DNA of 60,521 nucleotides, taken from IMG/VR virus record IMGVR_UViG_3300036852_000709, one strand, 5' to 3'. Position numbers and translations under genes: made by a program. This DNA is from an uncultured virus (IMG/VR IMGVR_UViG_3300036852_000709) (lineage: Duplodnaviria > Heunggongvirae > Uroviricota > Caudoviricetes). The notes beneath the pieces were generated by a model, which saw only the letters and a program-made list of their open reading frames with translations, was not told the DNA's origin and ran no database searches. Below, piece by piece: positions 6,969 to 24,200 of the stretch. Position 1 is the first letter of the stretch, and each line of letters opens with the position of its first letter.

Positions 6969-7177
6969 CCGCCGAGTCGAGGATCATGATGTTGCTCCTC
7001 GACGGGCCAAAGACGTGTGCACAGATCGCGCGTCGTCTCCACCGAACCACGCCCAGCGTGTCTATCGCTCTTTCCAACCTACGCCACGCTGGCAAGGTCG
7101 CCCAATTCGACGGGCTTCGCTGGCGTCGGACCGACTCTGACCTAGGACCTCTTTTCTCCGATGTTAAACCGAAGTGA
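6965..7177 (+). CDS. winged HTH protein
   Basis: GPKTCAQIARRLHRTTPSVSIALSNLRHAGKV. Confidence 0.7.
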   Translation: MTAESRIMMLLLDGPKTCAQIARRLHRTTPSVSIALSNLRHAGKVAQFDGLRWRRTDSDLGPLFSDVKPK

Positions 7178-7868
7178 CGAAGGCGCGCTCATAGCGCGAG
7201 CGCAGGCAGGCGATCGTGCCGCGATGAATGAAGCGATCCGGGCCAACATTGGCCTCGTGAAGACGATCGCAAAGCGCTACTGTTTTGCTGGCGACGAAGC
7301 CGACGACTACGTGTCCGCGGGGCTTGAGGCGGTGTGGCGTGGCATCCAAGCGTACGATCCGCATCGTGGGGCAAAACTCAGCTCCTACGCCGGTCGCAAG
7401 ATTCGCGCAGCGATGCAAGACGTCGGCGAAGACCGCGGTATTGTGTGGGTTCCGAGCGACGTGCAGCAAAAGATGCGCGGATGGAATCCTCGCGACTACC
7501 ACGGGCGCACGCTGGCCGACGGAATTGCCGCGTCGGGCGGGTCTGTTCCAATCCACAGCGACAAATACAAGCACGGCGACGGGTACCGCACGGACTTACC
7601 CCCTGCAGAGGCTCCAGACGTCGAGTGGCACGACCTCGCGATGAAGCGGTGGTTCGCCGTCATGGGAGCGAAAGCGACGCTCGACGCGCGAGAGCAGGAT
7701 GTTCTATGGAGGCGGTATTCCTCCGACCCATCAGAGACGCTCGCCGAAGTTGCCGACCGATACGGTCTGACACGCGAGCGCGTCCGCCAGATCGAGGCAC
7801 GCGCGCTTCGAAAGATCCGTGCCGCTATCCGTCAGAACGAAGCGCACGCAATCGATCTATGGGGGTGA
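7161..7868 (+). CDS. sigma-70 family RNA polymerase sigma factor
   Basis: region 2 ANIGLVKTIAKRY...YDPHRGAKLSSYA; region 4 TLAEVADRYGLTRERVRQIE. Confidence 0.92.
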   Translation: MLNRSDEGALIARAQAGDRAAMNEAIRANIGLVKTIAKRYCFAGDEADDYVSAGLEAVWRGIQAYDPHRGAKLSSYAGRKIRAAMQDVGEDRGIVWVPSDVQQKMRGWNPRDYHGRTLADGIAASGGSVPIHSDKYKHGDGYRTDLPPAEAPDVEWHDLAMKRWFAVMGAKATLDAREQDVLWRRYSSDPSETLAEVADRYGLTRERVRQIEARALRKIRAAIRQNEAHAIDLWG

Positions 7869-11608: not shown

Positions 11609-11872
11609 GTGAACTGGACAGATATTCGCAGGATGCTGCGCGGAAAACTTGGCTCCGAGCCTAGAAACGGACGCAAGCACGATACGTGGGACGTGTACTG
11701 CGGCGAATTTTATGTGGGACGAGTATTGGACTCGCATGGGAAAGGCGAGTTGACGAGTCGTGAAATCGGACACATCGCTCGCGATCTGAGATTGAACGAA
11801 TTTAAGCTCAAGGAACTTGAGCGATGTACGATGAGCAAAGAAGAGTTTTGTACATTTGTGACAGCTAAGTAG
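11609..11872 (+). CDS. HicA-like toxin
   Basis: 87 aa; KLGSEPRNGRKHD...SHGKGEL...IARDLRL pattern. Confidence 0.65.
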   Translation: MNWTDIRRMLRGKLGSEPRNGRKHDTWDVYCGEFYVGRVLDSHGKGELTSREIGHIARDLRLNEFKLKELERCTMSKEEFCTFVTAK

Positions 11873-11895
11873 GTCTGCACGCATCACGAGAAATG

Positions 11896-13008
11896 TTAAG
11901 CATCGAACAGTGATAGCTGTGTGCCATGGGGTGGAATCGGCTTCGGCGGCTCTGCCAGTCGCGCAGGCGCCGCCGCGAATAGGTCGAGCTGCCCTCGTGA
12001 CGCGGCGGGCACAGCGGGCTTTGCTGGCGCCGGAGCGGGCTTTGCAGGCCTTGTCGCGGGGCGTACGAGCGTGAGCGTGCGTCCAGTCGTGGTGATGCGC
12101 GTCGGCGCCTGGACATCGGCGCGCCGGACGAGCGCGCCAGGGCTCGGCGGGTCGCACGGCTCTGCCGCGAGGCACGCCTCGACAAACTCGATCGTCGTCC
12201 ACCGATGATCCGCGATCCCGGTCGCCTGCGCGGGCGTCTTGCCCTTGAGCGCGGAGTTAGGGCGGCAGAAGTTCGCCCACGTCGCGAACGCGCCTACGGC
12301 GGCCGTGTGGTGCTCAAGGCTCTTGGAGTGCCCGCTGCCGCGCCGCACGAGGCGACGCAGGTTCGTACGGAGGGCGAGCATCTCGCGCTTGGTAATCGAC
12401 GTCGAGATCTCGCCCGCGTCGGGCGCGCCGCAGATCACGCGCTTGCTCACACGAGGCGGCCCATGCGCCGGAGCAACCTTGTCGTAGTCGCGGCGGTTGC
12501 CGGAGAAGTTCTTCACAACCTGTCCGAAGTGCACCGCGCCGGGCGGCAGGTCGGGATTGAAGAACGCCTCGCCAACGGCTGAGAGATAGGCCTGCAAGCC
12601 ATCGGTCGAGAGGATCGGCACGGTCACGAGGCGCGCCCGCATGTCGAGCATGAAGGCCTTCGCGTTCACGTCGTCGCGCTTGCCCACGCGCCACGACACG
12701 ATGAGCTTCGAGGCTCGCGCAAAGGCGATCCACACCCATTGCTCGCCGATCTCTGGCGGGTCCGCGGGCGTGATGTTCTTGACGCGCTTCTTCACGAAGC
12801 TGTGCAGCTCGTCGGCTTCGATGTGCACCACGTCGAGATCGCGCACGAGCCGGTTGTGGAGCGCTTCCGCGCCGCGCGCGACGTCGAGTAGCAGCGCGGC
12901 GACCGTCTTGCGGTTGACGCCGCAGAGCCGCGACGTTGGGCGCATCCCGTTGCCCTCCATGAGGTGCTCGATCACCTCGGCGCGCTTCGCCAACGGCAGC
13001 ACGTGCAT
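11896..13008 (-). CDS. IS1-family transposase (third catalytic residue appears E>K)
   Basis: N-terminal HTH, EADELHSFV, LSTDGL, ISTSITKRE, NFCRPNSALKGKTPAQATG. Confidence 0.9.
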   Translation of the reverse strand: MHVLPLAKRAEVIEHLMEGNGMRPTSRLCGVNRKTVAALLLDVARGAEALHNRLVRDLDVVHIEADELHSFVKKRVKNITPADPPEIGEQWVWIAFARASKLIVSWRVGKRDDVNAKAFMLDMRARLVTVPILSTDGLQAYLSAVGEAFFNPDLPPGAVHFGQVVKNFSGNRRDYDKVAPAHGPPRVSKRVICGAPDAGEISTSITKREMLALRTNLRRLVRRGSGHSKSLEHHTAAVGAFATWANFCRPNSALKGKTPAQATGIADHRWTTIEFVEACLAAEPCDPPSPGALVRRADVQAPTRITTTGRTLTLVRPATRPAKPAPAPAKPAVPAASRGQLDLFAAAPARLAEPPKPIPPHGTQLSLFDA

Positions 13009-13083
13009 GAGCCTCTTGCCTCCGACGGTGGCCTGGCCCATGCTCATCGTGCGGGCGTCGCGTGGGCCTACCACCGATGTCCA

Positions 13084-13115
13084 GCCCCGCGCCGAGCACC
13101 ACCTCGGCGCGGGGC
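13084..13115. terminator. perfect 13-bp hairpin upstream of transposase
   Basis: GCCCCGCGCCGAG-N6-CTCGGCGCGGGGC. Confidence 0.5.
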
Positions 13116-13204
13116 ATTTCATTAGGTAGACGTCACAATAAGCCTATGTATCAAGGCTTTCGAGAGAACAGTTGGTCACATAGGACAGCGAATGTCCTAG
13201 CAAC

Positions 13205-13537
13205 ATGCAGCAGAGGTCAGCGGGTTGGAGGTCGACCGTGAAGGCATCCACGCGGAAAGCTCGCATCGTGGCGATTGGGGTGGGTATCGCCATGCTTATT
13301 GCGCTCCAAGGCAGCCTGTTCGCTGTTGGAGGATCGCGGCTGGCCGCCCAGGTAATGCACGTCCTGGCAGTTGTATCCACTTGCGTCTTCTTTTTAATCC
13401 GGCGCAAGCTGAGAGAGGAGTACCGCCGAAACGGCGAGACGGAGCCATTCGAGTTGCGCGTCGTACCGTGGCTCTTGGTTACCTGTGTTGTTCTATTAAT
13501 GCTGAGCGCTGCCCTCGGGCTCGGTCCATGGTCATGA
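13205..13537 (+). CDS. small membrane protein (IS cargo)
   Basis: three hydrophobic segments. Confidence 0.55.
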   Translation: MQQRSAGWRSTVKASTRKARIVAIGVGIAMLIALQGSLFAVGGSRLAAQVMHVLAVVSTCVFFLIRRKLREEYRRNGETEPFELRVVPWLLVTCVVLLMLSAALGLGPWS

Positions 13538-16267: not shown

Positions 16268-16578
16268 GCGATGTAATCGAAGTTGTATCGGCGGCGATCA
16301 TTTACGACGGGCGTCTCCTGTTGGCGCAACGCAAGCCTACGGGATCGCACGGATGGTGCTGGGTAACACCCGGCGGGAAGGTCGAGCCTGGCGAATCGTG
16401 GGCAGACGCGCTGCATCGAGAATTGCGCGAGGAAGTCGCGCTCTATCCACACGCCTACCTCGACGACCGAAATTGGCTGGCGGCGCTTCGCTCGTCCGGT
16501 CGATTGCACAGGCGCGCAGGGGAAGGGCTTGGCGAAGGCATTCCGCGAGAGGCATCTGGCGGCATGCGCAGACTATAA
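16264..16578 (+). CDS. NUDIX hydrolase, C-terminus apparently truncated
   Basis: Nudix box PGGKVEPGESWADALHRELREEV. Confidence 0.75.
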   Translation: MSDVIEVVSAAIIYDGRLLLAQRKPTGSHGWCWVTPGGKVEPGESWADALHRELREEVALYPHAYLDDRNWLAALRSSGRLHRRAGEGLGEGIPREASGGMRRL

Positions 16579-16876
16579 GCGGATGTGCGCGCGTGGCGCG
16601 ATCCGGCCTGGGCACATCTGGCACACGCGGTCTGGCTCGCGCATCGTTCTGTTCGCCGCGACGAAGAACCATTGGTCGAAGCCGTCCGAACTGGAGTGGA
16701 TTCGGATGTGCCTCGAGCGCATCAACGAGTTCATCAGCGAAGGAGGAGTACCGTCGATCGCTGTGCCAGCGCTCGGGTGTGGACTCGGCGGGCTGGCATG
16801 GTCCGACGTTCGGCCGCTGACAGAGCGCATCCTAATAATCACCGACTGCGACGTGCGCGTGTACGAGCCTCATTGA
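16496..16876 (+). pseudogene. macro domain (DarG/TARG1-like), N-terminus missing or reached by frameshift
   Basis: PVDCTGAQGKGLAKAF, ATKNHW, SIAVPALGCGLGGLAW. Confidence 0.75.
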
Positions 16877-17139
16877 TGACGTATTGCAAGTTCTGCGGCT
16901 CAACCGAGCACATCGCCGGCATTGACTGTCCACTCGTCAAAAAGAAGCACGGCTCGGTGGACGTCGCGAGCGGGAGCGGGCCGTGGACATGGCACATCGT
17001 GCCGCCGTATCACGAGTGGCATTCGACAATCGCGGCAAGGACGGCCGATGCAAAAATGTTAGGCACGATCGCACACGGCTGGAACCCAGTGTTCGTGGCG
17101 ACGCCAAGCGATGACACGACCAAGCGACCAACACGATAG
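16876..17139 (+). CDS. hypothetical protein with zinc-knuckle-like N-terminus
   Basis: YCKFCGSTEHIAGIDC. Confidence 0.55.
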   Translation: MTYCKFCGSTEHIAGIDCPLVKKKHGSVDVASGSGPWTWHIVPPYHEWHSTIAARTADAKMLGTIAHGWNPVFVATPSDDTTKRPTR

Positions 17140-17157
17140 CTGCCTTCCAAGAGCCGG

Positions 17158-17511
17158 ATGGACCTTGAGCCCGCGTCACACGTGACGATGATAGCCATGA
17201 TGCCGCGCGACCCATACGAGGACGCATTCCGCCCGTTGGTGGAGCGTCTCGTGCTTCAGGTCCTCCGCGAGCACAGCCGCGGTAGTCCCTGGATCTCACA
17301 CCGTGACTCCCCGCTTGGGCCAGAGGTCACCCGTCGGTTGTGCGCACGTGGGCTCATCCCGGCGCGCAAGGTTGGCGCTGTGTGGGTGATCGCGGTGGCG
17401 GACCTGGACAGGTACATCGAAGAGCATCAAGCGCGTCCTGAGCCCGCAGAGGACCGCGACGGGGATCTGGGCGCGAAGCTCCAGGCGAGAGGGGCGAAGA
17501 TACGCGGATGA
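17158..17511 (+). CDS. excisionase-like HTH protein
   Basis: RRLCARGLIPARKVGAVWVIAVADLDRYI; near att site. Confidence 0.75.
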   Translation: MDLEPASHVTMIAMMPRDPYEDAFRPLVERLVLQVLREHSRGSPWISHRDSPLGPEVTRRLCARGLIPARKVGAVWVIAVADLDRYIEEHQARPEPAEDRDGDLGAKLQARGAKIRG

Positions 17512-17514
17512 TCC

Positions 17515-17543
17515 TTGTCACTGCGCGCCGCTCGACTTATGGT
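17515..17543 (+). promoter_or_regulatory. sigma70 promoter
   Basis: TTGTCA-N17-TATGGT. Confidence 0.7.
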
Positions 17544-17549
17544 CATCTC

Positions 17550-17630
17550 GGTCTGTGCGGCGCTTGAGGTAAGTCAAGCATCCGAGCAGAAAGCAGCCCG
17601 GCGGGAGCTGAACCCCGCTGGGCTTTTTTT
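17550..17630 (+). ncRNA. candidate ~80-nt small RNA
   Basis: own promoter, hairpin GCTTGA-GGTAAG-TCAAGC, terminator hairpin plus T run, no ORF. Confidence 0.55.
17596..17630 (+). terminator. rho-independent terminator
   Basis: AGCCCGGCGGG-loop-CCCGCTGGGCT followed by T run. Confidence 0.8.
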
Positions 17631-17961
17631 ATGCGCATGCCAGATATCGAAACGGCACGGCGACGAGCGTCCGTGATCGACGCGCTGAGCACATGTCGCC
17701 GAGCCGACCATCGTGCCGATGGATCCGACACCTAAGATTCCCGCGAAGAATGGCCTCGGTGGTCGTTCCAAGCGCGCGGGCAAGTCGGTAAACAAATTTG
17801 ATGCCTGGGCCAAACTTTGACGCGAGGGTGGCCGATACGGTTTGCTGCCTCATCCCAAGGCGGCGAGCGAGTTCGGCCTGCGTCGTGTGCTTGAGTTCCT
17901 CGCGGAGCACGTTGCGTACGCGGTTGCATTCGTCGCGCGTGAGATGCTTGCCTGCGCCCAT
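17629..17961 (-). CDS. XRE family repressor-like HTH protein
   Basis: TTQAELARRLGMRQQTVSATLAS...LARALGTT. Confidence 0.8.
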   Translation of the reverse strand: MGAGKHLTRDECNRVRNVLREELKHTTQAELARRLGMRQQTVSATLASKFGPGIKFVYRLARALGTTTEAILRGNLRCRIHRHDGRLGDMCSARRSRTLVAVPFRYLACA

Positions 17962-18167
17962 GATGTCCACCATCGTGTCCAGAACCGTGAGCCAACTGCA
18001 ACGATCTGTCGGTGGGCCATGAAGGACTTGAACCTTCAGCCAATGGATTAAGAGTCCACTGCTCTACCTGCGCACACCCGCAGATTGCGGCAATTGCGCT
18101 GCGGATGGCAGTGATCCGCAGATGTGGACATCTCGCCGGACACGTTCACGGGCACGTTGGACACGTT
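17962..18167. repeat. putative integrase arm-type sites flanking att core
   Basis: GTGGACATC 18124, GGACACGTT 18138 and 18159, GGGCACGTT 18150; inverted GATGTCCAC 17962, CGTGTCCA 17974. Confidence 0.6.
18011..18068 (-). other. attP-like core: 3' 58 nt of tRNA-Lys(CTT)
   Basis: minus strand GGTAGAGCA-GTGGA-CTCTTAA-TCCAT...GAAGGTTCAAGTCCTTC-ATGGCCCACC; 5' acceptor strand absent. Confidence 0.85.
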
Positions 18168-18193
18168 GCCCACGGCGGGCTGATGGTTAGGTT
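18166..18193 (+). promoter_or_regulatory. promoter, TGGT-TANNNT class, with leaderless mini-ORF 18201-18230
   Basis: TTGCCC-N16-TAGGTT-N7-ATG. Confidence 0.6.
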
Positions 18194-18226
18194 GGGCTCT
18201 ATGAACGATAGCGGATGGGAGGCACT

Positions 18227-18799
18227 GTGACCCAGGTGGCCGAGTCGTGCGACGCGGCTCAGGCGGCTCAGGCGGTTCATCTCAGCGCCTTGGCCGCCAT
18301 GTGGGCGGCGAAGAGACGCGGACTCGGGATCGTCGCGGCATCTGCAAGGCCCCAGGAGCCGCAACGCCGAACGGCGCGCCCGGTCGCCACATCAAGGATC
18401 CACCCAGCGCTGACCCCGGCTCGGGAACTCGAACTCATTGAAGCCTATCGGCATGGATCGAGGACCGCGGGGGACGCAGTGCTCCGAGCGTATGAGCCGC
18501 TCATAACGCACTACGCCTGCCGATTCGCGAGGAGAGGTGCGGAAAAATCGGAGGCGGCACAGGTGGGGCGCATCGGACTCCTGCGTGCAATGGATAAGCA
18601 CGACCGCGCGAAAGGGGCCTTCATTAAATACGCATGGCATTTTATCTACTTTGCCATGGTGAAGGCCGCGCGCCGCTCAGACATCGACAGTCTGGACGAA
18701 CCGATATTCGATGATGGAGATCCGCTCGTGGAGCGGTTGCCCGCCCTATGTGGCAACCCAGAAGAGATACTCATTCTTGCGGAGGAACTAGGTCTGTGA
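18227..18799 (+). CDS. sigma-70 region 2 protein lacking region 4
   Basis: LTPARELELI...AYEPLITHYA...QVGRIGLLRAMDKHD...FIKYAWHFI. Confidence 0.75.
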   Translation: MTQVAESCDAAQAAQAVHLSALAAMWAAKRRGLGIVAASARPQEPQRRTARPVATSRIHPALTPARELELIEAYRHGSRTAGDAVLRAYEPLITHYACRFARRGAEKSEAAQVGRIGLLRAMDKHDRAKGAFIKYAWHFIYFAMVKAARRSDIDSLDEPIFDDGDPLVERLPALCGNPEEILILAEELGL

Positions 18800-20226
18800 T
18801 CCCGCGTCCATATCAAGAACGAGCGCTTGCGTCTATTATCAACTACGCAGTTGCGAACCCGACCGGGCGCCTCCTCGTTCAGGGTCCTCAGGGATGCGGC
18901 AAGACATATATTGCGGCCATGGCGCTCTTGCTACTCGCACAGGAGCAGGGCCTTCGGAGTATCTCGTGGGCACATCGGCGCGAATTGGCGTTCCAAAAAT
19001 ACGATCACCTAATCGAGTGCGGCATACCCCGCGAGATGATTGGAATCGTCGTATCAGGCGATGCCGGCCATGAGCTTGACGATGAAGATCGGCCATCACG
19101 TCGGCGGTGTCTTCAAGCCCAGATCCAGGTGGCTACCGTTGGGATGCTGGGCAGGATCGAGATCCCCGCCGACGTGGTGGACTCTGACGAAGCGCACATG
19201 GACGCCGCCGATGGTCGTCGTAAACTGCGGGCGCGCTACCCCAATGCTCTCCACCTCGGATGGACGGCGACCCCGTGCCGCCTCGACGGGCGAGGACTCT
19301 CAAAGGAGTACGACGACATCGTGGTCGTAGCGTCGCCTTCTGACCTCATCGCGCTTGGCCACATTGTCGAGCCCCGTGTTTTTACGGTGCCAAAGGAGAT
19401 CTTGCCAGACCTCGCGAACGTCAAGCGGATTAGTGGCGACTTCGAGCACGCGGAACTGTCCAAGCGAGTTCGGCGACGGGCGATCGTTGGCGGCATCGTG
19501 GACAATTGGCAGCGCCTTGCAGATGGGCGTAGCACCGTAGCCTTCTCGGTCACACGCGAGCACAGCAAGCAGATCGTGCGATCGTTCCGGGACGCAAAGA
19601 TTGAAGCTGTGCACATCGACGGAGAGAATGCTCCCGCCGAACGTCGGGCTATTCTAGCCGCGTACGAACGAGGCGATATACAGATTCTGTCGTGCTGTGA
19701 ATTGCTGTCGACCGGATGGAACTCGCCGCGCACCAAATGTGTGATTCAAGCCAGGCCAACTCTCAGCTTGCCGCTTCATCTACAGCAGACCGGGCGGTCG
19801 ATGCGTCCGTGGGGAAACGTCGGCGCGTTGATACTGGACCATGCAGGGAACGCGATGCGGCGTGGGCTAGGGCTGCCGACCGAGGAACGAGATTGGCAAG
19901 GAATTTTCCGAACGGAGACCAGGCCCACGCCGGCAAAATCGAGCACAAGAGAATGTTCTGGGTGCCATATGGTAGTCGCTGCACGAACTGACGCGTGCAG
20001 CCATTGTGGTGTTGTGCATGAAAGAACACCGCCTGCGGTTGGTCCAGAACTGACTAGCATTCTCGAGGAGGTAGGAGCATCGGGCAAGGTAGACAATTCT
20101 GCGGAGGAAAGGCGCGCGGCATGGAGCGCAATCCAACAAGTGGCAAGCGATATCGGCGCCGATATGACGTGGGCAACACGAATATTTGACGCTCGTTTCA
20201 ATGAGAGCCAAGCATGTATCAACTAA
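18796..20226 (+). CDS. SF2 DEAD/DEAH helicase with C-terminal Zn finger
   Basis: RPYQ, GCGKT, DEAH, TATP, QTGRSMR, CxxC-CxxC. Confidence 0.9.
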   Translation: MIPRPYQERALASIINYAVANPTGRLLVQGPQGCGKTYIAAMALLLLAQEQGLRSISWAHRRELAFQKYDHLIECGIPREMIGIVVSGDAGHELDDEDRPSRRRCLQAQIQVATVGMLGRIEIPADVVDSDEAHMDAADGRRKLRARYPNALHLGWTATPCRLDGRGLSKEYDDIVVVASPSDLIALGHIVEPRVFTVPKEILPDLANVKRISGDFEHAELSKRVRRRAIVGGIVDNWQRLADGRSTVAFSVTREHSKQIVRSFRDAKIEAVHIDGENAPAERRAILAAYERGDIQILSCCELLSTGWNSPRTKCVIQARPTLSLPLHLQQTGRSMRPWGNVGALILDHAGNAMRRGLGLPTEERDWQGIFRTETRPTPAKSSTRECSGCHMVVAARTDACSHCGVVHERTPPAVGPELTSILEEVGASGKVDNSAEERRAAWSAIQQVASDIGADMTWATRIFDARFNESQACIN

Positions 20227-21239
20227 GCATTGACGAACGAGCAAGGATTGTCGCAGAGGCCATAAGAACAGGATCTGGGAGGTCCGCCAGAGGCATTCAT
20301 GCTGCCCCGACAGTTGTTGCGCTGTTGACTAACGTGTCGAACGGGTTGGCTGGGTGGAGGTTGGGCCTATTTGATTCAAACCTTGGCACGGCTCGATGTT
20401 ACGTAGACACGATGCGAGCTGGTGGAGGCAGACGCGTTGCGCTGTGCACGGAAGACAAAACGCGTCTGGTGTTGGGCTTTGGCATAGGAATCAGCCGAGA
20501 TGAGGCAGAAACCAAGGCTGAGGCGATGGCGGCGCTTGTGTCGTCGCCGCTGCGGTTACAGGGCTTTGCACCAGATGGCCACCATTGCCCACGCAATCTA
20601 GGATCCTACAAGACTGAGGACGCCCTGTTGCGCGGACTTATTTTTAAGCTCACGACGTGGAACCTGTGTGTAATCATTGACGGCGCTACTCCTGCGATGC
20701 GGGCGGGCATCCAGAGCGCGCCATGGTCTCCGCGGCGCATCATCTCCACGGCCCTCGATGTTGTTCATTCGCCAGTTCTTCCAGAGCGCAAGGGCAGCAA
20801 ACCTAAATTCGAAGTAGCAGAGGAAACGGCAGAGCCCGCGGCGCTGGAACTGGCGCAGGCGACCGAGGCGGAGCGCGACGCCGTGGTAATGGCTACGCCG
20901 TACGGCCTGTTTCGAGTGGAAGAAATCATCCATCGGACAGATCAGAAGAACCACCGAAAAATTCGTGCCATCATAGATTGCGTCGTTCGGTGTGAATGCG
21001 GCGTGGTGAAGCGTGTGTCCTGGAAACATCTGAGCCGTGGAGCTATTCGAAGCTGTGGCTGCCTTGCCTTGGCGACGGTCGCCAAGGAATCATCTAGCCT
21101 TCGTGTTCGGGCCATGGGCGCCGAGATGACGATCGGACAGCTCGCGGTGATATCTGGCAGGCGTCCCATTCAGTTGCTGTCCAGGATGCGCGCGGGGATG
21201 TCCGCGGAGGAGGCGGCGTTCGCGAAAGCATCTAAATGA
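20214..21239 (+). CDS. degenerate IS1-transposase-like domain fused to HNH-associated DNA-binding modules
   Basis: TVVALLTNVSNG and WNLC...TPAMRAGI...W match the transposase; CECG...SCGC plus terminal HTH. Confidence 0.65.
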   Translation: MYQLSIDERARIVAEAIRTGSGRSARGIHAAPTVVALLTNVSNGLAGWRLGLFDSNLGTARCYVDTMRAGGGRRVALCTEDKTRLVLGFGIGISRDEAETKAEAMAALVSSPLRLQGFAPDGHHCPRNLGSYKTEDALLRGLIFKLTTWNLCVIIDGATPAMRAGIQSAPWSPRRIISTALDVVHSPVLPERKGSKPKFEVAEETAEPAALELAQATEAERDAVVMATPYGLFRVEEIIHRTDQKNHRKIRAIIDCVVRCECGVVKRVSWKHLSRGAIRSCGCLALATVAKESSSLRVRAMGAEMTIGQLAVISGRRPIQLLSRMRAGMSAEEAAFAKASK

Positions 21240-24200
21240 AGTTCGTCGGGCATCACGAAGCGTCGACCTTGCCGATCAAGCAAGGCGATATTGTGACAAT
21301 CCGCAAGGGCACGGTCTGCCGCTGCCGAGGCGCTGAGCGGGTGGCCGGCCGCACCTACAAGATCAAGGTGTGGAGCATAGGCATCGGCGGCGAATGGGAT
21401 AGCCTCAAGCCTGGACACAAGGGCGCCAACGCTGATGGCGTGGTCCACACTGTCATCAATCCAACCATCACATGGGTCGGCGCTGGCGGTTATTGGTGCG
21501 ACGTCGATAGCAACCTACTGCCGGAAGTAAATAGATGAGCGCGACCGAGGGCCCGTCTATCCCCCTGTCCGCGCCTGATGGTCGCGTGTACGCCTATGCG
21601 TGTCCACGGTGCCATCAGGCCGCGTCCTCGATGTCCAGGTCGGACCAAGGCGATGGGCCAGACGGCTTTCTCGTCGGAGAATCGAAGCGAGGCGCCGATT
21701 CTTGCTGTCGATGCACAAGGTGTCGAGCGCCGCTCAGTGAGCGGCTGTTCGGCCCATGCGCGGCGTGCAAGCCCATCGTCGCCGCTGAGCAGGCCGAACG
21801 GGAACGAGCGTGGAAGGATGCAGAAGATCAACGGTCGAGAGCGGTCGTCGTTTCGCTTGGTTCGGCGAAGAGCGCCGACGCAGCCATAGACCTGCTCCGC
21901 TTGATGCGCGAGATGTCGGAAGACAAATGGTGCGCCGGGTGGCTTGGCGGGCTCGAGCGAGTGCTGTGGACAGCCGTCATCCGCGGAGAGAGCAGTGACC
22001 TCACCGAAGCGGAGGCGCGTAAATTGGCGCGCATGGCCAACGCTGCAGGTGGTTGGTGGTTCTGGGACGATGCGCTATGCGGCGAGAACTTCGTTGCGAT
22101 GGACGCGTGGTTGAAGATGTTCGGCACCGATGATCCGGTTGTGCGGACAGTGTTGGCGGTCCTGAGCGTGCTGATTGGCGGCTTGGCGACGGGCGCGACG
22201 TTCACGTCGACCGAATACGCGGCCGGCTATGCAGCGCACGGATGTGTCGATAAAGTGATGGGAAGATGAAGGAATGAGCGTCTATCGCGATCCGCCGCGG
22301 CGCGCTGAGAAACTTGAGACGTGGTTGACCAGTTGGTCCAGAAGGACGATACAAATGGCGAAACTCGGTGTGGTGAAGGGCTTAAAGGCAGCAAAGGAGG
22401 TCGGCTTGGTTACCTTTGGAGCACTGGCCGGCGCGGTTATCGGGGAAGGGTACCGGACTGGGATCGCGGCGCTGGCAGTGTGCATCGCGGCCGGCTGTGT
22501 CATCACCTGGATCGCCGGAACAATCGCGGAGGACTGATGAAAAGCGAGGCTGCATGTAGGAAGGACGAGTATCCCGATATCACTCACGCTGATGTCAAGA
22601 TGGGGCTTCACGTTGTGCGCTGGCGACGATGCAAGCAGACGGATGCGTGGCGCTTCCAGATTGCTAAGGTTACCAATCTCGGGCAGTTGAATAACACATC
22701 TGGCCAGGAGGCAGAACTTCAGGACCTCGTGACGGGGCGAAAGACAACCGTTAGCATTGCCACGCTGTGCGCGAAGTTCTCGCGCTATGTCGAGCCGAAG
22801 AGCAAGGCGGTGGCTGCGCCACCTGCGCTCGAGCCAAGCGCTGGCTTTCAGGAGGCGACGTTCGCGACCGCATCAGCGGGAGCGCGGCCAGCGGATCCCG
22901 ATGCTGACGACCCGCTGGTAGGCGGGCGTGGACTGAATATCGGCGGTGTGCGCTTGCGATATGTGACGGATGGAAGCAACGGCAACGGCGCCAATGGGAC
23001 GCACAGCGGGCCAGGTGTGGAGTATGCGCGTCCACACGACGGGCAGCTCAGTCTCGAGGATGCCTATGAGCGCCGTGTAGTAGCGGCGGCAGAGAAGGCT
23101 GCCGAGACGAAGTTTAGAAAGCTGATGGCCGAATTCATGGGCGGTGCAGGACAGAAATGTGGGTGGTAGCGTTGTTCGCGGTTCTGGGCGTGGTTGGATG
23201 TGCGACGACAGAACCGGTTGCGGTTGAGCATGACGCGTCAACGGCAGTCGTTCAGGCTCCACCGTGCATCCACGAGGTGTGCGCGGAGCGTCCAGTGGCG
23301 CTGGTGGGAGTGGGGTCCTCCAGCTATAGTGGTTTTAGCCGATACAGCATCAAATACGAGCACCATTGCACGTGTGATCGGTGGGGCGTTCCAAGCGCAG
23401 ATGATGCCGGAGTAGAGGGCAAGTGAAGGCGGCGAGTTTCGCGCAGGCGCCGCTATTCGCTGCCGGCGCAACCACAGCCTGTTCTAGGTGCGGCGAGCCA
23501 TGCAAGGTCGCCGATGCGAAGAATCCAGACGCCCGTCTGCTCCGTCATGCGGCCGTGCCCGTCGGACAGTGCGCCAACTGCGCGACGGCAGAGGTTTTCT
23601 TCGTGCTCGGCCTTCGAGGCTTGGTCAAAGACGTCAAGACGCTGCTGCTCCCGCACGTTCAGGCGCAATTCGTCGCAGTGATGAAGTCTGGAGGTGCGGA
23701 CGCTAACCCGTCTGAACTAGATTGGGCCAAGATCGCCAGGTGGTGGGATCTGCCATTCGCTGGACCACGCGGGAGACCGGTCATCCCGTCGCCCGCTAGC
23801 AAGGCGAGTGGCAACATGGACCCACCGGATCTGCGACGAATGGCGAGGGCGAGATGAGCGGACTAGCCTTCGAACTTTATCAATCCCACGTGCGAGGGTT
23901 CTCGGACGGTGCGGGGCGCAAGTTGGTCCGTAGGGAGTACGAGAACCACCAAACGCGGCCAGACTTGAAGAAGGCCTATCTCGACGCTTATGTGCTCGGC
24001 CAGAAGGCGCTGAACGATAGCGCGAAAGCGTACGCCGCCGCGGTCGGTTATGAGCCAACGATTCTCCGAACGCAGGAAGGGGGCCACGATAAAAAGCCCG
24101 GCAACGCGGGCGGGGATGTTCCGCGTGCCGGGCAAAGCGGTCGGAAGGAGAAACCGAGCGCGGGCACCATGTATCGCGACGATCCAAGATCGTCAAGGAG

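Follow-up and report, generated by a model that had tools for sequence, protein, structure and literature searches.

An IS1-derived, catalytically dead transposase relative with predicted DNA-binding modules beside an SF2 helicase gene in an uncultured phage

The gene at 20214..21239 (plus strand, stop codon included) of the uncultured virus IMGVR_UViG_3300036852_000709 encodes a predicted DNA-binding protein of 341 aa, which is derived from an IS1-family transposase and catalytically dead. The whole stretch of 60,521 nucleotides that was analysed is called the window here. The N-terminal 185 residues of the protein keep the transposase helix-turn-helix (HTH), a shortened RNase-H-like core and the tail helix, while the three catalytic carboxylates have been lost along with about 100 surrounding residues. 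A flexible linker joins this transposase remnant to a zinc ribbon with four cysteines and a terminal HTH. On balance, we favor the reading that the protein is a member of a small unannotated phage family derived from an IS1-family DDE transposase, and that it marks a specific phage DNA site for the helicase and the early replication machinery.

The first-pass annotation had described short peptides shared by this protein and the window's own transposase, a full-length IS1-family protein used here as the comparator. The transposase gene lies outside the operon of the studied gene at 11896..13122 (minus strand; PF03400, 29.5 bits against a cutoff of 24.1). All eight quoted pairs of peptides could be placed. 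RARIV, TVVALLTNVSNG, TRLVLGFGIG and TPAMRAGI were found in the 341-aa protein, and RAEVI, TVAALLLDVARG, SKLIVSWRVG and ANFC/TPAQATGI were found in the minus-strand open reading frame (ORF) of the transposase, and their order is identical in the two proteins. Pairwise BLASTP gave a best E value of 0.11 in a single comparison, which is not significant, so the match made by eye needed a stronger test.

A profile of the N-terminal domain (N-domain), built from a family of nine clusters at 50% identity with the 341-aa protein included, was compared by hhalign with 48 IS1 transposases. The match had a probability of 98.6 and an E value of 9.5e-16, and query positions 1–183 were collinear with transposase positions 39–320. 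The HTH segment (1–50) alone was placed at IS1 positions 39–89 (probability 97.0, P = 9.6e-11), and the tail segment (136–184) alone at positions 273–320 (probability 96.9, P = 1.6e-10). The real score was 110.3, while 20 column-shuffled queries scored 9.6–20.5 and the reversed query scored 13.0.

Hidden Markov model (HMM) searches gave the same result in both directions. The plain N-domain HMM was searched against 981 six-frame ORFs of the window (at least 40 aa), and its matches were the 341-aa protein and the IS1 transposase only. The transposase matched in two collinear pieces at an E value of 3.7e-11, and the next best ORF was at 0.15. In the complete 198-kb phage genome G001, the family profile matched only the homologue P0004 and the IS1-family transposase of that phage, the latter again in two collinear pieces (E values of 2.2e-7 and 9.3e-5). 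In the reciprocal search of 990 sequences, an HMM of 48 IS1 proteins found five of the nine family members at E ≤ 1e-3, namely P0008 (1.5e-17), P0016 (5.6e-7), P0005 (2.5e-4), the 341-aa protein (3.4e-4) and P0003 (3.8e-4). The noise level of this search was marked by one unrelated 40-aa ORF at 0.0025. Since hhalign with its controls, the HMM search of the window, the profile search of G001 and the reciprocal HMM agree, the sequence relationship of the family to IS1 transposases is real, and it is a likeness to the IS1 clade in general.

The likeness to the window's own transposase was therefore upheld only in part: the IS1 relationship stands, but it is family-wide and not special to the resident copy. 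The identity of the 341-aa protein to IS1 transposases is approximately 20%. Among 49 IS1 proteins ranked by identity to it, the resident transposase was 14th for the HTH, 38th for the tail and 15th overall. The G001 transposase ranked no better for P0004 (26–45 of 49). A specificity shared with the resident IS1 was considered and is unsupported by these ranks.

Curated models did not reach the N-domain. PF03400 matched none of the nine family members at E ≤ 10, and no NCBIfam IS1 model gave a hit. The PF03400 model is confined to the catalytic part, precisely what this family has lost. The protein-language-model neighbours of the N-domain were all DDE transposase clusters (IS6/IS240-type), with scores of 0.75–0.78, below the level at which they would count as more than a lead.

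The N-domain begins with an IS1-type three-helix HTH at residues 1–48 (20214..20357), for which the AlphaFold model has helices at 6–19, 22–25 and 31–45. Its structural matches were Myb/SANT-like (Z = 4.4–5.7), and in the match list of the whole model the rows below the integrase and transposase cores were mostly HTHs of the Myb/SANT type. The HTH is followed by a shortened RNase-H-like core of the DDE transposase/integrase kind, without the catalytic triad, at residues 54–168 (20373..20717). The AlphaFold2 model, made from the nine-row alignment, had a mean predicted local distance difference test score (pLDDT) of 76.9. Its core comprised strands at 60–68, 74–80 and 86–92, a helix at 95–107, a strand at 113–116 and a long helix at 135–151, so that in the model the β1–3/α1/β4 sheet and the last helix are retained.

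The model was compared with 48,161 PDB representatives. The best 25 rows were all retroviral integrase or DDE-transposase cores, and the cores matched were those of mouse mammary tumour virus (MMTV), Rous sarcoma virus (RSV), Mu, TnsB, IstA, ISCth4, Ty3 and Hermes. In these rows 93–139 residues were aligned over model residues of approximately 54–168, with Z from 8.9 down to 5.8, the top value being barely above the range regarded as common. The fold match carries weight because the match list is uniform and agrees with the sequence profiles. The best Foldseek rows were also nearly all integrases or transposases, and none of them reached an E value of 0.001 (best 0.016).

The tail motif WNLC-x6-TPAMRAG-x5-W at residues 149–171 (20658..20726) is common to IS1 transposases, in which it reads YNFC...TPAM.AG...W. 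Residues N150, T159, P160, A161 and W171 align with the nearly invariant N284, T296, P297, A298 and W308 of the IS1 proteins.

In the alignment of 48 IS1 sequences, D104, D174 and E245 of the transposase are invariant or nearly so. The first catalytic residue, D104, aligns with Y63 of the 341-aa protein (family column YYYRD--YR), and gaps stand opposite D174 and E245. No counterpart was found for 99 of the 282 aligned transposase residues. Only four columns, P160, A161, G165 and P208, are invariant across the family, and no acidic triad is therefore conserved. In Pfam, no nuclease or DDE family matched the protein at E ≤ 1. The central catalytic segment had been called largely deleted. Instead, the core has lost the DDE triad and the 99 residues and is shortened, and its RNase-H-like sheet persists. 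The domain parse that had been proposed as a check, carried out on the AlphaFold model, resolved the HTH, the shortened core and a linker at residues 185–215 (20766..20858). The linker is predicted to be disordered (pLDDT < 50); its length varies among homologues, and it is gapped and proline-rich in the alignment.

The C-terminal module (C-module) consists of two parts. Residues 229–285 (20898..21068) form a predicted β-hairpin zinc ribbon with the cysteines C260, C262, C281 and C283. These four cysteines and G282 are invariant in 28 aligned sequences (fragment columns C45, C47, C66, G67 and C68). Residues 297–336 (21102..21221) form a small β-hairpin and a terminal HTH (MTIGQLA..G..P......R...GMS.EEAA), which were recognised from alignments, the model and predicted-structure matches. 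The model of the C-module had a pLDDT of 92.1 and showed a helix, the long β-hairpin ribbon, the small hairpin and a three-helix HTH. The C-terminal string CECGVVKRVSWKHLSRGAIRSCGC quoted in the earlier annotation was confirmed in the protein.

The C-module is in no Pfam family and has no clear solved relative in the PDB, where the best sequence match had an E value of 0.51 and the best structural match a Z of 4.3. I-TevI has a zinc finger and an HTH region, and its DNA-binding domain matched the C-module weakly in the structural search (Z = 3.2). Among predicted phage and viral structures in BFVD, 20 matches were found at E ≤ 1e-3. The 50 BFVD rows listed included seven named HNH, four AP2/ERF and four other (homing, intron or plain) endonucleases, the rest being mostly unnamed. 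The profile phrog_374, named HNH endonuclease, matched the ribbon alone at profile positions 223–257 of 617, with E values of 7.7e-4 for the 341-aa protein and 2.3e-6 for P0004. The proposed likeness of the C-terminus to phage HNH and AP2 proteins was thus borne out, as ribbon and HTH recur in BFVD proteins named HNH, AP2 or homing endonuclease. The lack of an HNH core was confirmed as well: Pfam at E ≤ 1, and likewise NCBIfam, contained no HNH, GIY-YIG or other nuclease family matching the protein.

More than 200 proteins or protein clusters contain the ribbon and HTH module, either as one copy or as tandem copies. Sub-threshold AP2 matches were found in three of 30 relatives of the C-module. 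Compared with the phage homing-endonuclease-like proteins (phrog_374 and the HNH, AP2 and HTH homing endonucleases in BFVD), the 341-aa protein shares the CxC-x18-CxC ribbon followed by an HTH, but lacks an HNH, GIY-YIG or AP2 domain.

The protein might still be a nuclease, or the gene a mobile homing-type gene, with an active site that is not recognised. A C-module typical of homing-endonuclease-like proteins, the T5orf172/MUG113 (GIY-YIG-like) domain carried by one of its relatives and the retained RNase-H-like fold would fit such a protein. We consider it very improbable, given that no acidic residues are conserved, the DDE positions are lost and no HNH, GIY-YIG or other nuclease family matches. 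The gene also keeps a fixed position by a helicase gene, and its divergence is similar to that of the helicase, which speaks for vertical descent and not for homing.

An HMMER scan of 1.84 billion representative proteins returned 211 proteins at E ≤ 0.001. Most of them match only residues of approximately 225–340, often as repeats. Eight clusters (P0003–P0008, P0016 and P0045) also match the N-terminal part, with 27–39% identity as aligned; their ORFs are intact and full-length and follow the domain order of the 341-aa protein. The C-terminal part varies in the family: the ribbon is missing from P0016 and preceded by an additional HTH in P0008. The IS1-derived domain is for this reason the constant core of the family. 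P0008 (390 aa), possibly an evolutionary intermediate, is the member nearest to IS1 transposases and the only one whose first catalytic position holds Asp.

The 341-aa protein has no family in Pfam or NCBIfam and is covered by no annotated PHROG family, and its N-domain has no match in any of the three. A word-based homologue search returned only the protein itself. By tblastn against 50,697 deposited phage records, no significant match was found, the best having an E value of 0.1 and covering the C-terminal part only. The 341-aa protein, P0003, P0261 and P0008 were used as single queries against the viral contig collection, and no related locus was found there. A profile search of the six-frame ORFs found no further copy of the C-module or the N-domain elsewhere in the window. 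The degenerate DNA pattern WNLC-x6-TPAM-x2-G gave one locus each in metagenome and genome contigs; both fall within or opposite a gene that resembles an acyl-CoA ligase and were set aside as chance matches. The region 18000–22300 was also recovered, in pieces with 0 differences, from a second soil metagenome of another study. Because this metagenome carries the identical stretch, the phage is not confined to one sample. No RNA data set was listed among the carriers of the stretch.

The ORF at 20214..21239 starts with ATG and is intact. One public gene call places the start at M67 (275 aa), which drops the first 66 residues (20214–20411) and with them the IS1-type HTH. Six homologues align from residues 2–10 of the 341-aa protein, and the longer form is therefore correct. 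A GAGAG motif resembling a ribosome-binding site precedes 20214 and, together with the homologues, supports the 341-aa form. No inverted repeat brackets 20214–21239 in the searched region 16500–23500, in agreement with the earlier remark that no insertion sequence (IS) ends surround the gene, and the gene overlaps its neighbours on both sides.

These results bear on the possibility that the gene is a decaying IS remnant, that it is a functionless chance ORF or that its likeness to IS1 is fortuitous. The BLASTP result with the resident transposase, the lack of a Pfam, NCBIfam or annotated PHROG family and the gene call without the first 66 residues would all suit such an origin. The homologues are intact, full-length and syntenic, with eight clusters at 27–39% identity in the same domain order, which speaks against the neutral decay that the first-pass annotation had named as a way to disprove domestication. 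The other disproof named there, the lack of a profile match to IS1 transposases, is contradicted by three independent lines of profile evidence with controls. The models of the whole protein and of the C-module are confident, and identical DNA is present in another soil study. We regard this explanation as the least probable of those considered. The idea of an exapted transposase remnant, as a structural reading, is supported by the profiles, the fold, the loss of catalysis and the intact homologues.

The gene immediately upstream, at 18748..20226 (plus strand), encodes a DNA helicase of superfamily 2 (SF2; RadD-like) with a C-terminal zinc ribbon (Pfam ResIII, Helicase_C and DEAD; phrog_16, E value of 6.2e-68). 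Its homologues are named "DNA repair protein RadD" or DEAD/DEAH helicase in their sources. The end of the helicase gene and the start of the 341-aa protein share 13 nt (20214..20226), so the intact ORF and its overlap with the helicase gene were confirmed as first described, and the overlap suggests that translation of the two genes would be coupled. The next ORFs (21236.. and 21535..) each overlap their predecessor by 4 nt. As successive ORFs overlap, the gene lies in a tightly packed operon. The operon opens with a sigma-factor-like gene at 18215–18799 (plus strand; region 2 match only), which shares 52 nt with the helicase ORF. The operon and a cI-like repressor gene at 17629..17973 (minus strand) point away from each other.

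The homologue P0004 was found on two IMG/VR contigs (L003 and L004) that differ at 1 position in 18,995 nt and thus belong to a single phage; one of them is the complete 198-kb genome (G001), which has terminal repeats. The gene order at this locus is sigma factor, SF2 helicase and P0004, and P0004 overlaps the helicase gene by 4 nt. The architecture beside an SF2 helicase that the first-pass annotation had proposed to look for is thus kept in another phage. P0004 is 32% identical to the 341-aa protein, and the upstream helicases are 50% identical to each other. The genes that follow are not recognisably shared by the two phages. The P0004 phage encodes a DnaC-like loader and a DnaB-like helicase 3–4 kb downstream of P0004. 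It also has a sigma factor of 350 aa at the place matching the sigma-factor-like gene of the operon in the window. P0003 and the helicase homologue P0266 are each listed from a Logan contig of 4331 nt and so may form a third linked pair.

We propose the following model. The protein would be unable to cut or join DNA and would bind it sequence-specifically through three DNA-reading modules. The dead core would probably be the surface on which subunits multimerise, the part that transposase cores play in synaptic complexes, and the protein would be made together with the helicase. Its most likely role would be to mark a specific phage DNA site, such as an origin, a recombination site or an early promoter region, for the co-expressed helicase and the early replication machinery. 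We prefer this role because the start of the gene overlaps the helicase stop in an early operon, and because this order is kept in a phage whose protein is only 32% identical.

Several points weigh against this model. The middle segment (51–135) alone is weakly IS1-like in hhalign (P = 0.012), although at the collinear place 125–162, and the plain IS1 HMM misses four of the nine family members (P0004, P0006, P0007 and P0045) at E ≤ 1; the low top Z of the fold match belongs here as well. DNA binding, the target site and the partner of the protein are all putative. No iterons or striking repeats were found near the gene (16500–23500), and no ATPase, AAA+ or P-loop loader motif was found in the protein in Pfam or PHROGs. 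Neither these results nor the search for IS ends backed the origin binder, helicase loader or transposition inhibitor that the first-pass annotation had suggested as putative roles. The synteny comes from one independent complete phage and the coincidence of P0003 and P0266. The helicase family is present in 1028 of the 50,697 phage records (E ≤ 1e-20), where the family of the 341-aa protein has no significant match; this helicase can therefore generally work without such a partner. Complex prediction for the helicase and the 341-aa protein gave scores of 0.28 and 0.08, the mark being 0.32, and speaks neither for nor against a contact.

The protein could instead be a stand-alone transcription regulator of the early or middle phage programme, whose modules bind promoters or operators and whose adjacency to the helicase gene reflects operon packing. 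We consider this less likely than the site-marking role. The protein has three predicted DNA-binding modules and no enzymatic motif, and its operon starts with a sigma-factor-like gene and diverges from a cI-like repressor. Relatives of the C-module include small stand-alone proteins or ones with further HTHs, and some of the listed BFVD matches are named transcription factor or regulator. On the other hand, the overlap with the helicase gene in both phages fits stoichiometric co-production, and no operator-like repeats were seen near the gene (16500–23500). Only the adjacency to the helicase separates such a regulator from a protein that marks a site for it.

The IS1-family transposases carried by the two phages bear on a different explanation. 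The resident transposase of the window has 101 homologues, many of which are named IS1 family transposase and many of which come from Sorangium. Its gene is an island of high G+C (0.63–0.73, against 0.43–0.61 in flanks within 11800–13260), and its G+C content at third codon positions is 0.85, against 0.6–0.8 in phage genes. This suggests that the gene was recently acquired from a high-GC host such as Sorangium or another member of the Polyangiaceae. No terminal inverted repeats were found round it, as the best local inverted alignment scored 16, while shuffled sequences scored 15.5 on average and 24 at most. The G001 phage also has a full-length IS1-family transposase (L005 1489–2811, minus strand, equal to G001:C1:167623-168780), which is 44–49% identical to that of the window. 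The two neighbourhoods are not syntenic, and no obvious inverted repeats surround the G001 gene either. A transposase of this IS1 type has a match in only one of the 50,697 deposited phage records.

The 341-aa protein might thus inhibit IS1 transposition in the manner of InsA or of a dominant-negative subunit, by competing for IS1 ends or poisoning transposase multimers, and so protect the phage genome in IS1-rich hosts or control the IS1 copy borne by the phage. What it retains of an IS1 transposase is exactly the portion that serves DNA binding and subunit contact, and catalysis is lost; both carrier phages have a full-length IS1-family transposase, which is so rare among deposited records. 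The closest homologues of the transposase and of the helicase come from Sorangium, which is rich in IS1 copies. We nevertheless consider such an inhibitor improbable. The family proteins resemble the co-resident transposases no more than they resemble other IS1 proteins (ranks of 14–38 and 26–45 of 49), and at an identity of approximately 20% a shared DNA specificity is doubtful. No inverted-repeat ends were found round either phage-borne transposase gene, so that no target is defined, and the two transposase genes are not syntenic. An inhibitor would also leave the added zinc ribbon and HTH and the linkage to the helicase unexplained. The broader idea, that the family is a phage counter-measure to IS1 or a controller of it, seems unlikely as well. 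In it, a dead transposase with an end-binding HTH, multimerisation surfaces and extra DNA anchors would act as a dominant-negative decoy against IS1, whether of the myxobacterial hosts or of the phage itself, entering replicating phage DNA.

The window is a phage-like genome with approximately 60% G+C. Its genes include ParB-like, RecE/RecT-like, exonuclease, terminase, portal/head-morphogenesis and major-head genes and two sigma-factor-like genes, the first of which is located at 7161–7868 (plus strand). At the head of the operon, a tRNA-like element at 18013–18079 (minus strand) matched Rfam RF00005 over the full model length (36.2 bits, gathering score 29). ARAGORN found no tRNA in the whole window. 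In both soil runs, many unrelated contigs match 18003–18068 with 3–7 differences, as expected of a tRNA or att-site fragment. A strong terminator-like hairpin at 17595–17624, with 11 pairs (of which 9 are G-C) and a T run behind it, separates the convergent genes of an excisionase-like HTH protein (17158–17511, plus strand) and the cI-like repressor.

Compared with the single-ORF IS1-family DDE transposases (PF03400) common in Sorangium and the Polyangiaceae, the 341-aa protein shares the HTH, the β1–3/α1/β4 order and the tail motif N-x-C ... TPAM.AG ... W, all collinear. It differs in having no D, D and E, in the absence of 99 of 282 residues, in giving no PF03400 match and in having no IS ends, and it adds a zinc ribbon, an HTH and a fixed position in a phage operon. 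InsA is the short N-terminal DNA-binding product of E. coli IS1, which is encoded inside the IS and represses transposition. Like InsA, the 341-aa protein is non-catalytic and has the DNA-binding part of a transposase. Unlike InsA, the protein retains a dead core and a tail and carries further DNA-binding modules; its gene is not part of an IS, and it shows no special closeness to the resident IS1.

CENP-B and pogo-derived factors are domesticated, catalytically inactive DDE transposases that serve as eukaryotic DNA-binding proteins. The phage protein likewise reuses the DNA-binding domain of a transposase after transposition has been lost, with its gene fixed at a non-mobile position, and the same comparison applies to TnpA-REP. 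It differs from these proteins in its IS1 family, its phage genome and its fusion to modules of the homing-endonuclease type. One abstract terms TnpA-REP the first prokaryotic domesticated transposase, and no IS1-derived or phage case of transposase domestication was found in literature listings and abstracts.

Domestication of DDE transposases is well documented in eukaryotes, and few prokaryotic cases have been described. The process itself is of a known kind, and what is new here is an IS1-derived phage case together with two modules outside curated libraries, namely the N-domain and the CxC...SCGC ribbon with its HTH. The family offers a clean example, in which the HTH, a minimal dead core and the tail of a transposase were kept under selection, recombined with homing-endonuclease-type modules and fixed beside a replication/repair helicase. 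If the protein does direct the helicase to a site or restrain IS1, it would represent a new way in which phages of IS-rich soil bacteria organise their replication or defend themselves against insertion sequences.

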